DNA of 64,000 nucleotides from NCBI GenBank assembly GCA_963704165.1, contig CAVPHD010000001.1:544001-608000 (forward strand). Direction: 5' to 3'. The DNA is from an uncultured delta proteobacterium. Lineage in GTDB: Bacteria > Myxococcota_A > UBA9160 > SZUA-336. Below are positions 9,259 through 20,195 of this stretch, in pieces. Each line of letters begins with the position of its first letter. Position 1 is the stretch's first letter. A program made the translations under genes and the position numbers. The notes under the pieces are model-generated. The model was given only the letters and a program-made list of their open reading frames with translations, searched no databases and was not told the origin of the DNA.

Positions 9259-12037
<2,779 letters not shown>

Positions 12038-15411: not shown

Positions 15412-15468
15412 ATGTCAAAGATTCCGATGCCAAATCCGCTTCCATTCCAAGTAGTTAACGGAAGTTCT
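15412..15468 (+). pseudogene. bioF: Detached original 5' end of bioF (MSKIPMPNPLPFQVVNGSS), cut off by the IS
   Basis: ATGs at 15412 and 15427 read to the TSD. Removing the IS plus one TSD joins them in frame to RLDAEL... at 19041. Confidence 0.65.
15461..15468 (+). repeat. Left 8-bp target-site duplication GAAGTTCT
   Basis: Identical to 19033-19040; abuts the left TIR. Confidence 0.88.
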
Positions 15469-15490
15469 CGGAATTAGGTACTTGACGCAA
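15469..15490 (+). repeat. Left terminal inverted repeat CGGAATTAGGTACTTGACGCAA
   Basis: 19/22 match to the reverse complement of 19011-19032 (GGCAATTAGATACTTGACGCAA). Confidence 0.9.
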
Positions 15491-15522
15491 CAGTCTCCGC
15501 CTGACCCTAGACTAGGCGCAGT

Positions 15523-15828
15523 TCATTGAGACGGTGTGACCTTGGACCTCCGCAGCGTCGGCCAGTCGGAGAACCCAAGTGCCCAGCGAGCCGCGAAGAT
15601 GCAGCCGGCGATTGGAGCCCACTTCCCGGCGTGGAAAACGATCACCAGCCTGAGCATTCGGAGTGCGGGGCTCGCGGCCTCGACCCCGACGGGAGCGAAC
15701 AGGGAGTCGCCCCCGCTCAACACTCGAACGACCGAATCGAGCGACTTGAACATCTGCCAGGACCAATACGCCGACCAAACAGCGATCGCGAGCCGACACG
15801 CAAAGCCGAACCAGTTCTCCCGTTTCAC
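15523..15828 (-). CDS. IS passenger: small hypothetical membrane protein (101 aa)
   Basis: GTG with an upstream GGAG, two hydrophobic segments, co-oriented with the other cargo genes. Confidence 0.45.
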   Translation of the reverse strand: MKRENWFGFACRLAIAVWSAYWSWQMFKSLDSVVRVLSGGDSLFAPVGVEAASPALRMLRLVIVFHAGKWAPIAGCIFAARWALGFSDWPTLRRSKVTPSQ

Positions 15829-15844
15829 GCCGCGGGTCTCCGGC

Positions 15845-16012
15845 TCAGCGCCGAACCGCTTTGCGCCGTGTTCTCTTCTTCTTCGGCCGCTCCGGCCATC
15901 CGCCCTCGGGCTTTCGCTTGGAGACCGCTCCTTTCAGCGCATCCTCCCAGGTTCCTGGCAGATGTAGCGCTCTAGCGTCTGGCCCGGTGTTCTTGGTCTT
16001 CCGATTTGCCAC
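15845..16012 (-). CDS. IS passenger: small basic protein (55 aa; TGPD..LHLPGTWEDALKGAV.KRKPEGGWP)
   Basis: GTG 10 nt after the NYN stop. It resembles small basic ORFs I recall accompanying IS1595 transposases (not verified). Confidence 0.5.
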   Translation of the reverse strand: MANRKTKNTGPDARALHLPGTWEDALKGAVSKRKPEGGWPERPKKKRTRRKAVRR

Positions 16013-16022
16013 GGGTGAAACT

Positions 16023-16673
16023 CTAAGAGCCTGCCGGCGGCAAGTATTTCTGGGGGCAGCGGGCAACCACGATTCCCGTCGAGTCCTTGACCTCTAGGGG
16101 AAAGAGGCTCTTGCGCAGGTGTTTCGGCTCGATACTGCGAAGGCTCGGATATCCACCGAATGCGTGCACGATCTCCTTGCTGTGCCGCCGCTTCGGTGGC
16201 GCAACGAGCCGAAGGGGCTTCGTGGGGAACTGCGTTCTGAGCATTCGCACAACAGGCGCCAGATCGGAGTCTGCCGAGAGAAGAAGTCCCATATCGTACG
16301 AGTTCTTGTACGCCTCGTTCAGCATGAAGAGGCCGATGTTCACGTCCGTCTCCTTTTCCTCGTGCGCGATCCACTTCCCGCCGCACTTCTTGCAACTGCG
16401 GTCCTTCGGCTTAAAGAACCCCATGACCGGCGTCACCCCCACGCCTTCCAGTGCAGCAACGTATTCGCGGTGGCGTGCATATGCATCTGGAAGCCATGTG
16501 GCGTACGCAGAGAAGTAGTAGATCTCGCGCAACTCTTGGTATGGCTTGGGAACAAAGAGCTGCAGGAGCGCCCTTAGGTTCAACCACTTGAAGTGGTTCT
16601 GTCCAATGTCATCAAGCGCATGGTAGATGTTGAACCCATCGACAAAGGCCGCGACTCGTTGTGTCCGTACCAT
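16023..16673 (-). CDS. NYN-domain (LabA/DUF88, PIN-like) putative ribonuclease with CxxC insert
   Basis: FVDGFNIYH, EEKETDVNI and LLSADSDLAP acidic motifs intact; CKKC insert. ATG 16673 has SD GAGGG. Confidence 0.88.
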   Translation of the reverse strand: MVRTQRVAAFVDGFNIYHALDDIGQNHFKWLNLRALLQLFVPKPYQELREIYYFSAYATWLPDAYARHREYVAALEGVGVTPVMGFFKPKDRSCKKCGGKWIAHEEKETDVNIGLFMLNEAYKNSYDMGLLLSADSDLAPVVRMLRTQFPTKPLRLVAPPKRRHSKEIVHAFGGYPSLRSIEPKHLRKSLFPLEVKDSTGIVVARCPQKYLPPAGS

Positions 16674-16758
16674 GTTGGCCCTCAAGTCCGGCTGGACGAC
16701 AGCCGAATCCGCGTCTAAGATTCGCCTTGAGTCATCCCGCAAGGTTCGCCCTTGCGCC

Positions 16759-16788
16759 GCCCATGGGCTTCGGCCCATGGGCTTTTCT
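16759..16788 (+). terminator. Intrinsic-terminator-like hairpin oriented antisense to the cargo genes
   Basis: GCCCATGGGC-TTCG-GCCCATGGGC (10-bp perfect stem) followed by TTTTCT on the + strand. Confidence 0.6.
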
Positions 16789-16809
16789 ACATCAGATACG
16801 CGAAAATGC

Positions 16810-16876
16810 TGGAGCCGGAGGGGATCAAACCCTCGCGCCCAAGTTCCAAGCCCGGACGCAGTACCAACTCGGCCCC
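16810..16876 (-). ncRNA. tRNA-like RNA (67 nt) with Ala-type acceptor stem and no D-stem
   Basis: GGGGCCG/CGGCTCC-A acceptor (G3:U70, A73); 10-nt AGTTGGTACT linker; 9-bp stem GCGTCCGGG/CTTGGGCGC with loop CTTGGAA; T-arm GAGGG-TTTGATC-CCCTC; followed by GCA rather than CCA. Confidence 0.65.
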
Positions 16877-16988
16877 GAAGGGATCGCTCACCATGGCCCG
16901 CCCCAAGCCGTCCCAACGCGCTTGGAGGCGGGCCTTCTGGTTACGGCCACCAACTCCGGTGAACAGGAGAGCGGTGGCTAAACGGTCC

Positions 16989-17714
16989 TCATGATTCCTC
17001 CAGCGGCAGGGTCGCTAGAAACTTCGCCAACCGGTCTACGTCGGCGGCTGTCAGATCCATAGGCAGCGCGAGCTTGATAGGCATGTCCCGACGAAGTTGG
17101 AACGGATGGACCATGAACCCAGAAGGGGTGTCAATTACTGGTGTGCGGTGAACGTCATCGTTCGGCGTACCCTGATCGCGCTGTCCGGATCCGCGTTTCT
17201 TGCTTGGCTTCCGCGAGCTCCGGGACTGAGCCGATTGCTGTCTACTAGCTCCACCTGCACCACGGCGGGGCTCGAAGTGGGGCGATATAGTCAGCTTCGC
17301 TTCCTGCATCGCGGAAAGGTAGAATCGCACTGCTTTATCGAGGACTTGGTTCTCTGCCTTGCCTCGTGTTCGGAATGCTTCCTTGAGCTGCGCGATGGTG
17401 CCAGAGTCGAGATCCACTCCTGCGAGAATCTCGCCGTACGCCTCTGAGATTGCGTTTCCTAGCGCCTCCGGCCACGTCGATGTACCATGGGCCTTCACGA
17501 CGGCCCGAAGCCGATCGGTAACAATTCCGGGGCCTTGGATCATCCCGAGAAAACGGAGAGCAACGCGCAGATGGCTTTGGGTTGCGCCGGACATGCTGGT
17601 CATCAGGCTCGCGTCGATCGCCGGGGGAAGGGCGGTTTTGCTCAGCTTTCCGATGAAGCCCAGGAAGGTCTGGAAGGGTACGTAGGGCGGTCGAGCCGTT
17701 TCTTCTTTGCTCAT
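16989..17714 (-). CDS. IS passenger: DUF5343-like protein
   Basis: PPYVPFQTF..FI..L....LP..ID.S.M..MSG.TQ..L..ALRFLG pattern (family assignment from memory), basic linker and short C-terminal LP.DLT.ADVDRL..FL domain. SD GGAG precedes ATG 17714. Confidence 0.6.
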   Translation of the reverse strand: MSKEETARPPYVPFQTFLGFIGKLSKTALPPAIDASLMTSMSGATQSHLRVALRFLGMIQGPGIVTDRLRAVVKAHGTSTWPEALGNAISEAYGEILAGVDLDSGTIAQLKEAFRTRGKAENQVLDKAVRFYLSAMQEAKLTISPHFEPRRGAGGASRQQSAQSRSSRKPSKKRGSGQRDQGTPNDDVHRTPVIDTPSGFMVHPFQLRRDMPIKLALPMDLTAADVDRLAKFLATLPLEES

Positions 17715-17746
17715 CATCAACTCCGTGAATTACGTGGAGAGCGACA

Positions 17747-18028
17747 ATGGAACAGACAAGTCGAGTCGTGTCAACCCCAGCGGAGTACGTCACGGATGCA
17801 GTGACGGCGCTCGTGCGGGCGTATGGCGATGAGGCGGTAGAGCTGCGGGCCTTCCGTACCGCTGCGGACCGCGTAGCAGTTGTCGGTCCTGATGGAACTA
17901 CGACCGGATATCCGATCTGCTTCGTGTACGAGTGGGATGCCCAGCTGTTCGAGCGCCTGAGTGCTGCATACGGCGCAGCCGATTGCGCGCAGCTCGAACG
18001 GCTGTGGACCCTCGCGAAGCCCTTCTAG
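17747..18028 (+). CDS. IS passenger: hypothetical protein, convergent on the transposase
   Basis: Only ORF filling the gap. GGAG precedes the ATG; the start may instead be GTG 17801. Confidence 0.45.
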   Translation: MEQTSRVVSTPAEYVTDAVTALVRAYGDEAVELRAFRTAADRVAVVGPDGTTTGYPICFVYEWDAQLFERLSAAYGAADCAQLERLWTLAKPF

Positions 18029-18984
18029 TACGAATCGCGCATCAAGCGCTTGCCATCGCCATTCCGAATCGCCAGCACCGTTCGATCGCCGTCGTCCATC
18101 TTGCGAGCGTTGTAGCGGAACTCGAACTCTGCCACGTAGCGATGCAGGTGCTTCGGCGAGACGTGGTGGAACGTTCCGTAGATCCCTCGCTTCAGCAGCG
18201 AGAAGAAGCCCTCGACGGTGTTGGTCGTTACGTCGCCGCGGGCGTACTCGTAGAGGCTGTGCTTCACCGCGTGATGGCCTCCCGCGAAGTGCTTGTTGAG
18301 CCCGCGATATGGATGCGCCTCGTCGGTCATGATGCGCGCGCTAGGGTCAACGTGCTGGCGGACCTTGGCCTTCAGGTTCTGACCCGGACCCTTCGGGACG
18401 TGTGAAGCGCGTGCATTGCCACCGCGCTCGACCATCGCGAACACGGTCTCCTTGGGCGTGCGCTTGTTCTTGCCGTGGAGGCGCTGGTTGCGCATTCGAG
18501 TCCGGCCACCGACGTAGGTCTCATCAACCTCGACGGTGCCCTGGAGCTGCGGTGGCGTGGAGTGGTCTTCGGCCATCGCGAACCGGATGCGGTGCATCAT
18601 GAAGAGCGCGCTCTTGTATGTGAGCCCGGTCTCCCGCTTGATCTGGAGCGCCGAGACGCCTTTCTTCGACGAGCACGCGCGCCAGAAGGCATGGCACCAG
18701 ATGCGCATCGGGATCGGGCTGTCCTCGAAGATCGTACCGACCCGGACGGTGAACTGGCGCTTGCAGCCCTTGCAGCGCCACAGGAAACGCTTGCTGCGCT
18801 CGCCGGTGGTGCGATCCTTCATCGCGTACACGTTCACGTCACCACAGCGCGGGCAGGCGGGCTCGCCGCCCCACCGCTGGGCTTCTATGAACTCGACCGC
18901 AACGCTTTCGTCGCGACACGCCTCTGGGAGTTGGGCGATGATCGAGTCCTTGTCCTGCCCGACCTTGCGTTGTCGTTGTGCCAT
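18025..18984 (-). CDS. IS1595-family DDE transposase
   Basis: Zn ribbon CPRCG...WRCKGC; KKGVSALQI HTH; VEVDETYVGG, IMTDE and TNTVEGFFSLLKRGIYGTFHHVS.KHLHRYV.EF.FRYN. Confidence 0.96.
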   Translation of the reverse strand: MAQRQRKVGQDKDSIIAQLPEACRDESVAVEFIEAQRWGGEPACPRCGDVNVYAMKDRTTGERSKRFLWRCKGCKRQFTVRVGTIFEDSPIPMRIWCHAFWRACSSKKGVSALQIKRETGLTYKSALFMMHRIRFAMAEDHSTPPQLQGTVEVDETYVGGRTRMRNQRLHGKNKRTPKETVFAMVERGGNARASHVPKGPGQNLKAKVRQHVDPSARIMTDEAHPYRGLNKHFAGGHHAVKHSLYEYARGDVTTNTVEGFFSLLKRGIYGTFHHVSPKHLHRYVAEFEFRYNARKMDDGDRTVLAIRNGDGKRLMRDSY

Positions 18985-18990
18985 GCCCGT

Positions 18991-19019
18991 AGACTAGAGG
19001 AATCAACGGTTTGCGTCAA
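18991..19019 (-). promoter_or_regulatory. Putative sigma70 promoter of the transposase (-35 inside the TIR), likely leaderless mRNA
   Basis: TTGACG (19019-19014), 17 nt, TAGTCT (18996-18991), then 6 nt to ATG 18984; no SD. Confidence 0.6.
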
Positions 19020-19032
19020 GTATCTAATTGCC
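19011..19032 (+). repeat. Right terminal inverted repeat
   Basis: TTGCGTCAAGTATCTAATTGCC, inverted copy of 15469-15490. Confidence 0.9.
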
Positions 19033-20195
19033 GAAGTTCTCGGCTCGACGCCGAGCTCGCGATCGAGCTCGGCACCCTGCGCGAGAGGAGCCTGTACAGG
19101 CGTCTCCGGCGCATCGAGGGACGACAGGCGCCGCGCATGCGCGTCGACGGCCGCGAGTGCACGATGCTCGCCGGATCGAACTACCTCGACCTCGCGGGTG
19201 ACGCGCGCGTGATTGCCGCCGCGCAGAGCGCAGCGGACGAGTACGGCACCGCCGCGGCGGGATCGCGGCTGATCAACGGAAACCTCGCGCTCCACGAGGA
19301 GCTCGAGGCCGATCTCGCGCGCTTCACCGGCCACGAGGCCGCGCTCGTCTTCAGCAGCGGGTACATGGCGAATCTCGGGGTGCTCGGCGCGCTCTGTGGA
19401 CCCGACGACGTGATCGTCTCGGACTCGTTGAACCACGCGAGCATCATCGACGCCTGCAGACTCTCGCGCGCACAGACGCGCGTGTTCCGCCACAACGACC
19501 CCGCGGATCTCGCGCGTGTCGCCGCGGAGCTCGCCGGCTACCGGCGTCGGGTGCTGGTCGTCGATGGCGTCTACAGCATGGATGGCGACAGGTCGCGGCT
19601 CTCCGAGCTCGTGCCGATCGCGCGAGCTCACGAGATGATCGTCGTGCTCGACGACGCGCACGGTCTCGGCGTGCTCGGCGCGACGGGCCGCGGCGTATCC
19701 GAGGCCGAAGGCGTCGCGGTCGACCTCTCGATCGGGAATCTCGGCAAGGCACTCGGCAGCTTCGGCGCGTTCGTCGCCTGCTCGGCGCGCGTGCGCGAGT
19801 ACCTGGTGAACACCTCGCGCAGCTTCATCTTCACCTGTGCGGTCGCGCCGCCCGCGCTCGGCGCGGCACGCGAGGCGCTGCGGATCGCGCAAGGGGAACC
19901 GGAACGCCGAAAGCTCCTGCTCGAGCGCGCGGAGCAGCTCCGCGTCGGCCTGCGTACGGCCGGCTACGACACGGGCGCGAGCACGACGCAGATCGTTCCG
20001 GCGATCGTCGGCGAGAACGACGCGGTAATGCGACTGACCGAAGCCGCGCTCGAGCGCGGCGTCTACGCGCAGGGCATCCGCCACCCGTCCGTGCCGCACG
20101 GCACGGCCCGGATCCGCTTCACGCCCACCTGCGCGCACACGGCCTCGGACATTGTCCGGGTGGTCGAGATCTTCGCGGAGCTTCGCGACTCGTGA
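19011..20195 (+). CDS. bioF: 8-amino-7-oxononanoate synthase (start now lies in the IS TIR)
   Basis: SNYLDL, GSRLING, FSSGYMAN, SDSLNHASIIDAC, DGVYSMDGD, DDAHG and LGKALG (PLP Lys); followed by bioA and bioD. Confidence 0.9.
   Translation: MRQVSNCRSSRLDAELAIELGTLRERSLYRRLRRIEGRQAPRMRVDGRECTMLAGSNYLDLAGDARVIAAAQSAADEYGTAAAGSRLINGNLALHEELEADLARFTGHEAALVFSSGYMANLGVLGALCGPDDVIVSDSLNHASIIDACRLSRAQTRVFRHNDPADLARVAAELAGYRRRVLVVDGVYSMDGDRSRLSELVPIARAHEMIVVLDDAHGLGVLGATGRGVSEAEGVAVDLSIGNLGKALGSFGAFVACSARVREYLVNTSRSFIFTCAVAPPALGAAREALRIAQGEPERRKLLLERAEQLRVGLRTAGYDTGASTTQIVPAIVGENDAVMRLTEAALERGVYAQGIRHPSVPHGTARIRFTPTCAHTASDIVRVVEIFAELRDS
19033..19040 (+). repeat. Right 8-bp target-site duplication GAAGTTCT
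   Basis: Identical to 15461-15468. Confidence 0.88.

Follow-up and report, generated by a model that had tools for sequence, protein, structure and literature searches.

What is the short tRNA-like sequence that lies between two cargo genes of a transposon in an uncultured delta proteobacterium, and what could be the use of an RNA that combines the acceptor end of an alanine tRNA with a loop of proline type? We examined this question in the window, meaning the whole 64,000-nt stretch of DNA that was analysed (Table 1), and in related loci from viral, genome and metagenome sequences.

The mini-tRNA and the transposon that carries it

The 67-nt RNA, referred to here as the mini-tRNA, is predicted to fold (MFE -34.7 kcal/mol; z-score -2.18, with 3 of 200 shuffles equally stable) into a four-way junction with zero linker bases and zero variable loop. 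In this predicted fold the D region forms a hairpin of 3 bp whose loop is UGGU, stacked straight onto the acceptor, and is followed by a 9-bp anticodon arm that contains three G-U pairs and carries the loop CUUGGAA, and by a 5-bp T stem with the loop UUUGAUC; GCA lies 3' of the RNA, and CCA is not encoded. The loop has the canonical 7 nt, U33 and purine 37 (A37), and the same CUUGGAA occurs in two relatives (L156 and L178), whose closing pairs favour UGG over the alternative register with GGA as its triplet, which we rejected. The acceptor with G3:U70, A73, the 9-bp stem and the T arm had been read directly from the sequence in an earlier note on this DNA and stand as described, whereas the unpaired D region of that account, and with it the label 'D-stem-less', does not: the D hairpin folds, a U-A pair in it becomes C-G in a sister copy, and the helix covaries throughout the family described below.

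Standard tRNA searches, which the same note had proposed, failed to recognise the RNA. The Rfam tRNA model RF00005 gave 24.5 bits (E 0.063), below its gathering score of 29, ARAGORN made zero calls, and in an Rfam scan every family, the tmRNA families included, stayed below its cut-off. A pattern derived from the mini-tRNA had a single match in the window and none in any of 100 shuffles, a post hoc and weak test. With tRNA-Ala (RF00005) the mini-tRNA shares the acceptor identity set, the T arm, the GG of the D loop and a 7-nt loop with U33. Unlike tRNA-Ala, it is without the 8-9 linker, the D loop of 7-11 nt, the 5-bp anticodon stem and the variable loop, and has instead a 3-bp D stem, a 4-nt D loop in which G20 numbering is not assignable, a 9-bp arm and a non-Ala triplet. 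All four bacterial alanine acceptor determinants listed in Table 1 of PMC9976931 (A73, G2-C71, G3:U70 and G4-C69) are present, and the tRNA-Pro determinants given in that source (G72, G35, G36, G37 and A73) are not all matched by the mini-tRNA, which has C72 and A37.

Table 1. Positions in the window of the mini-tRNA, its parts, and the features of the surrounding transposon.
Feature	Position	Strand	Remarks
Mini-tRNA, 67 nt, four-way junction	16810..16876	-	fold prediction and covariation
Acceptor stem, 7 bp, G3:U70	16876-16870/16817-16811	-	part of mini-tRNA
D hairpin of mini-tRNA	16869-16860	-	
Anticodon arm	16859-16835	-	loop 16850-16844; UGG 16848-16846
T arm	16834-16818	-	A73 at 16810
IS1595-family element, 3,564 bp	15469..19032	-	single copy in assembly
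Left terminal inverted repeat	19011..19032	-	
Right terminal inverted repeat	15469..15490	-	
8-bp target-site duplication, left copy	19033..19040		
8-bp target-site duplication, right copy	15461..15468		
IS1595 transposase, 319 aa	18025..18984	-	PF12760 and PF12762
Cargo ORF, 243 aa, DUF5343-like	16989..17720	-	below Pfam cut-off; weak PADLOC PDC-M34A match
Cargo NYN nuclease, 216 aa	16023..16673	-	PF01936; PADLOC HEC-09, E 8e-51
Upstream hairpin 1	16946..16978	-	3 of 10 predicted pairs changed on both sides in sister (two sequences only)
Upstream hairpin 2	16895..16934	-	identical in sister; + strand part terminator-like
Two hairpins just 5' of NYN	16738..16782	-	first terminator-like on + strand

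The mini-tRNA sits inside an IS1595-family element, a setting that the earlier note had overlooked, with the DUF5343-like ORF upstream of it and the NYN gene downstream. The element has a transposase with both PF12762 and PF12760, inverted repeats and an 8-bp duplication; the family, as Siguier and colleagues are said to have described it, is marked by a Zn-ribbon and ISXO2-like DDE transposase, inverted repeats of about 22 bp, an 8-bp duplication and variable cargo. In transposase, repeats and duplication the window element is like other IS1595-family elements with passenger genes; its own feature is the tRNA-like RNA cargo, of which we found no description for IS1595 elements in the full-text literature. 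No sigma-70-like promoter was found inside the 3,564-bp element.

Among 32 genomes of the host's taxonomic family, a full match to the mini-tRNA was found only in G258, of the same genus. The sister element there (L156) lies at the same insertion site with the same duplication, possibly reflecting one old insertion; its transposase is 86%-identical and frameshifted, its protein cargo is different, with NYN absent, and the only internal stretch common to both elements is the mini-tRNA with its upstream hairpin. The cargo of the sister IS (L156:2201-4626) comprises a phosphoribosyltransferase (PF00156), ORFs of 86 and 92 aa and a divergent 253-aa ORF. Twelve substitutions separate the sister mini-tRNA from the window copy, and six of them form three compensatory pairs (in the D stem, the long arm and the T stem); the remainder comprise one change from G-U to G-C, two that break one pair and three in loops, a pattern that random placement produces with P = 3e-4. 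The sister has the same CUUGGAA loop, as does the third relative, L178, where the closing pair is flipped. ARAGORN calls the sister mini-tRNA only at a relaxed threshold.

A chance fold, or a pseudogene of the host tRNA-Ala or tmRNA, would agree with the modest folding z-score and with the Rfam score under the cut-off, and is nevertheless highly improbable: BLAST of the mini-tRNA against host tRNAs and tmRNA gave zero matches, its alignment scores were 31-34.5 against two host tRNA-Ala genes compared with 55 and 50 against the two closest relatives, and covariation extends across the family. The sister's compensatory changes and the family-wide covariation contradict a chance fold or a pseudogene, and the BLAST result and alignment scores set aside the decayed host tRNA-Ala or tmRNA that the earlier note had envisaged as a way for its reading to fail. 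It is also quite unlikely that the family is functional and the window copy a relaxed, decaying passenger. The T loop of the window copy has U56, found in 3 of 123 family members, and those of the sister and L178 have C55, found in 2 of 123, so that the elbow may be weakened in this off-consensus branch; these bases, the three G-U pairs of the arm, the sister's broken pair and frameshifted transposase, and a divergence between the two mini-tRNAs of 18%, similar to that of the flanks, would all suit decay. However, the three compensatory pairs and the covariation of the upstream hairpin argue against it, as does the retention of the RNA while all protein cargo was swapped.

Two further roles were considered and rejected. 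tRNA-Pro(UGG) was not found in the 84%-complete host assembly, but all four genus relatives, the sister's genome included, possess it, which argues against the mini-tRNA as a substitute. A substitute for tmRNA was dismissed in view of the host's own tmRNA; full-length tmRNA was found in three of five other carrier genomes, and not found in two.

Nor is the suggestion supported that the RNA is a processing signal releasing the NYN mRNA: the RNA persists in the sister element although NYN is missing there, and only one other locus was found to have an NYN relative. The NYN nuclease is a neighbour of the mini-tRNA, not its partner; HEC-09, the PADLOC class to which it is assigned, gave no defence in the results reported in 10.1101/2024.01.29.577857. 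A 297-aa open frame from 16916 reads through the mini-tRNA into NYN, and its N-terminal extension is treated here as probably incidental because NYN homologues are mostly about 210-220 aa long. An NYN scan of viral sequences gave zero matches, and BLAST against plasmids returned one irrelevant 28-nt match for the mini-tRNA region and none for a relative. Hairpin pairs 5' of NYN genes, as in the window, also occur in several unrelated loci (L001, L002 and L005), and similar hairpins were seen by eye upstream of NYN relatives without a mini-tRNA; the pair is possibly an RNA partner of the NYN family. Elsewhere in the window, a gene that we take to be an enolase is split over two frames (10186-11211 and 9911-10294), and other long host ORFs likewise change frame, which suggests assembly indels.

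Structure, identity and distribution of the RNA family

The mini-tRNA belongs to a widespread, apparently undescribed RNA family of at least 123 distinct RNAs. The search patterns, which combined an Ala-type acceptor with a T arm spaced closer than in a normal tRNA-Ala, matched 40 viral, 90 genome and 2 metagenome loci (the metagenome pattern being narrow), and other builds, namely canonical-like, TLD-like and a 59-nt class, were removed by eye. Members have a 7/5 build of 66-71 nt, in which the D stem is linkerless and 2-4 bp long and the anticodon arm measures 9-10 bp. A family model was made from 60 sequences, and 101 matches from 100 chosen loci were realigned. In this alignment, which is model-fitted and includes kin that are not independent, the paired cells amount to 90.6% (67.8% in shuffles), and double changes were seen at 18 of 23 pairs; the D helix is 82.5% paired, with double changes in all three of its pairs. 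A model-free test found the linkerless junction in 74 of 101 members (shuffle mean 8.7, maximum 16, 200 shuffles), an upper bound given that the set was partly selected for such a build, and the 5' arm is 9 nt long in 42 of these 74. The covariance-model search for homologues advised in the earlier note thus yielded covarying homologues, with covariation in all stems. Only 1 of 15 members tested reached the RF00005 cut-off; mini-tRNA genes escape standard tools, leaving a widespread RNA family missing from annotations. The 59-nt Ala-acceptor RNAs (viral L009, L013, L022 and L025), with encoded CCA and a different middle part, make up a separate small class.

The alanine identity claimed for this RNA finds support in the four determinants of the window copy and in G3:U70, present in 120 of the 123 distinct members. 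As the search patterns fixed much of the acceptor, the fair tests are pattern-independent subsets. U70 rather than C70 occurs in 120 of 124 matches where the pattern permitted either, and of 28 members found by the model with an acceptor outside the search pattern, 26 have G3:U70. In an acceptor-free viral scan (at least 111 distinct sequences), the matches listed were mostly offset canonical tRNAs, and both of the two complete four-way hits among them had G3:U70 and A73. G51:C63, an EF-Tu affinity pair, is present in 114 of 123 members. Even if the family RNAs do not decode, such strict alanine identity would still indicate an unknown use of charged mini-tRNAs.

The tRNA-like domain (TLD) of tmRNA, including the TLD-only RNA of phage DS6A described in PMC4131195, is similar in its Ala acceptor and T arm, its short D region and a long helix that replaces the usual arm. 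The mini-tRNA could on this basis imitate the TLD, titrating SmpB and damping trans-translation, the more so as one member (G470:C11) scores 47.8 bits against RF00023 (cut-off 47) and TLD-only RNAs are reported in the same source to inhibit tmRNA. Such a role, close to the mini-TLD that the earlier note had imagined, is very improbable, however: the D stem is paired, the closed anticodon-like loop is conserved, a tag frame is absent, UCGAC occurs in 0 of 101 members and the pre-T-stem GAC in 1 of 101 (the host tmRNA contains both), the window copy stays under every tmRNA family threshold, and a true TLD-only RNA found at L068 differs in look. This latter RNA (L068:3324-3393, + strand) lies on a Saccharibacteria contig near tRNA-like hits and has the motifs UUUCGAC and GAC and no tag frame.

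Family members were found in IS1595 elements, IS1-family elements, phages and, in multiple copies, Patescibacteria chromosomes. At 79 genome loci with flanks, an IS1595 transposase lay within 4 kb in 18 and an IS1-family transposase in 13; within 1.5 kb, one or the other was present at 28 of 79 loci, compared with 0 of 21 control loci (73-nt hits of the same model, of which the six inspected were all canonical tRNA-Ala). L105 was excluded by the length filter although an IS1595 transposase is present. In the host's class, six of the seven short model hits examined adjoin IS1-type transposases (one repeats L088). Of 46 loci linked to a transposase, 21 (13 IS1595 and 8 IS1-type) have inverted repeats and an exact 8-bp duplication around the RNA, a count for which part of the search required enclosure, and only 1 of 21 loci selected by transposase carried the RNA (some flanks ended at contig ends). 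In a comparison for co-evolution of the RNA with the transposase family, the nearest-neighbour label agreed in 28 of 42 cases. Besides transposases, no recurrent antitoxin or partner protein was found near family loci; neighbouring cargo includes candidate defence genes. A reverse-strand terminator upstream of the RNA was present in 10 of 42 IS copies versus 19 of 57 others, and was rejected as an IS-specific trait.

In most IS1-type elements the RNA directly precedes the transposase and shares its strand (19 of 23 rows, one a duplicate), and this arrangement, like the structured leader, would suit an RNase P/Z processing or punctuation signal for the mRNA of neighbouring cargo or transposase. 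That role is improbable in view of the mixed position and orientation of the RNA relative to the transposase in IS1595 elements, the missing NYN link and the stand-alone chromosomal members without transposase in Acidimicrobiia and Patescibacteria; neither G3:U70 nor U33, moreover, is needed for processing.

A search around one Patescibacteria genome covered 26 genomes and found members in 8 of them, with a maximum of five in any one genome and with strong covariation. The Patescibacteria paralogues L339-L365 (G469, G470, G472, G478, G482 and G498), 2-5 per genome and all chromosomal, mostly have an encoded CCA and promoter-like upstream sequence (by eye); they show 14 different acceptor interiors and no IS1/IS1595 transposase nearby. 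An Acidimicrobiia member lies in largely conserved synteny (L055, L060, L072, L078, L081, L086, L095, L112, L121 and L127) and has Trp- or Cys-type loops (CCA, GCA), with two further copies in G468. Planctomycete members (L048, L051, L058, L082, L107, L109 and L110), six of seven beside IS1-type transposases, have loops of 7 or 8 nt with UAU, the commonest anticodon of allo-tRNAs in PMC5389517, directly before the conserved loop A.

The anticodon-like loop and what it may decode

The loop is 7 nt long in 89 of 101 model-aligned members, 77 of these 89 having U33 and 76 having A38. Position 37 is C in 36, A in 33, G in 12 and U in 8, hence a pyrimidine in 44 of 89 loops, which is unlike canonical tRNAs. 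The 76 loops with U33 present 28 triplets, with five loops reading Ala and ten reading stops, although automatic loop placement misreads some rows. Patescibacteria loops have G35 in 21 of 23 cases and mostly read Ser, Thr, Pro or Ala codons (kin not being independent), and Ala at codons read by such G35 loops is a mild change. Among IS-borne members, G35 occurs in only 3 of 36, and seven read stop codons. Rare-codon targeting was rejected, the bias being weak (16 of 36 compared with 10.3 expected). Only the closest relatives retain UGG, and because Patescibacteria and IS-borne loops differ, it is seen as a trait of the window copy's branch.

Judged from sequence features, the mini-tRNA may be an adaptor that is charged by AlaRS and inserts Ala at non-Ala codons, here Pro, in low-efficiency mistranslation; this seems to us plausible while falling short of probable, and Ala-at-Pro would be the best-fitting reading of the mini-tRNA, given that a mistranslating adaptor would require just such features: a conserved arm length, U33 and an identity blind to the anticodon. 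The RNA would be transcribed together with upstream cargo, released by RNase P and 3' trimming and completed by CCA addition; some tRNA genes of the host likewise do not encode CCA. The D-stem/anticodon-stem stack of canonical tRNAs has about 10 layers, and the 9-10-bp arm could stand in for it, with the mini D loop offering GG to the T loop in an L shape of normal size. Host AlaRS would then charge the RNA, and AlaRS ignoring the anticodon is the reason we propose both for the alanine identity and for a loop triplet left free to vary; decoding with Ala would follow at codons that match the loop, which for UGG are Pro codons. The benefit, the weakest step, might be that of conflict-type transposon cargo, either by mildly poisoning the proteome or by filling A sites stalled during stress or infection.

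Covariation, the compensatory pairs of the sister, the prevalence of G3:U70 (120 of 123), U33, the arm length and the Patescibacteria G35 all seem to favour an adaptor, whereas pyrimidine 37, U56 in the window copy, the few G35 loops in IS copies, the seven stop-reading loops there, the weak rare-codon bias and the lack of a partner antitoxin or a promoter match would count against one. The precedents reported in PMC5389517 point both ways: G3:U70 allo-tRNAs inserted Ala in E. coli, and some allo-tRNAs were not used in translation, which counts against an adaptor.

The main rival is a charged decoy that does not decode, alanylated and hence stable and not sensed as uncharged, whose loop baits anticodon nucleases or tRNA-targeting toxins and so protects host or element. 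Pyrimidine 37 in 44 of 89 loops, the off-consensus T loop of the window copy's branch, the broad triplet range, the candidate defence genes among neighbouring cargo and the irregular tRNAs on record as charged yet untranslated (PMC5389517) would all be expected of it. We nevertheless consider it rather unlikely: no co-occurring nuclease partner was found, and the Patescibacteria G35 bias and G51:C63 suit ribosomal use better.

Returning to the mistranslating adaptor, we put forward, tentatively and with some doubt, that these RNAs form a new structural tRNA class, defined by a linkerless four-way junction without variable loop in which the D-stem/anticodon stack gives way to a single long arm. 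Phages and transposons of the IS1595 and IS1 families would spread the class, Patescibacteria would keep it in multiple copies, and anticodon-blind AlaRS would serve it to reassign codons to Ala, those for Pro in the present case and Ser/Thr/Pro, rare or stop codons in others. If these RNAs do decode, programmed mistranslation would be encoded by transposons and ultra-small bacteria, and a natural 67-nt scaffold with a freely changeable anticodon and natural stop-reading loops would offer a new minimal architecture for ribosomal adaptors and suppressor design.

Relation to known irregular tRNAs

No account of the mini-tRNA family was found in the full-text literature, mostly non-subscription, the nearest being the allo-tRNAs. 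These and the irregular tRNA polycistrons of Mukai et al. (PMC5389517) are described there as combining diverse non-cognate anticodons with Ala (G3:U70) or Ser identity, as having a D tetraloop, and as lying near transposons and toxin-antitoxin genes; some mistranslate. The family's own range of triplets, only 5 of 76 loops being Ala, matches this anticodon diversity. On the other hand, the 8/4 or 9/3 acceptor branch, long variable arm and long D stem of allo-tRNAs in that source are their own: the mini-tRNA has neither such a branch nor a long variable arm, and its family is 7/5, without variable loop, with a short linkerless D stem and a 9-10-bp anticodon arm. The family would work like allo-tRNAs yet fails their structural definition, and the irregular 7/5 tRNAs mentioned in PMC5389517 could overlap with it.

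The tRNA-ProX of Streptomyces (PMC11415595) is comparable as a natural bacterial tRNA with a mismatch of identity and anticodon that involves Pro. Its logic, as reported there, is the reverse, with Pro identity and Ala, Asn or Thr anticodons on a near-canonical cloverleaf. Finally, a full-size tRNA at L355:699-770 (- strand), 0.8 kb from a family member, joins an acceptor of Ala type (G3:U70, A73) to a CGU loop of Thr type that has C37.
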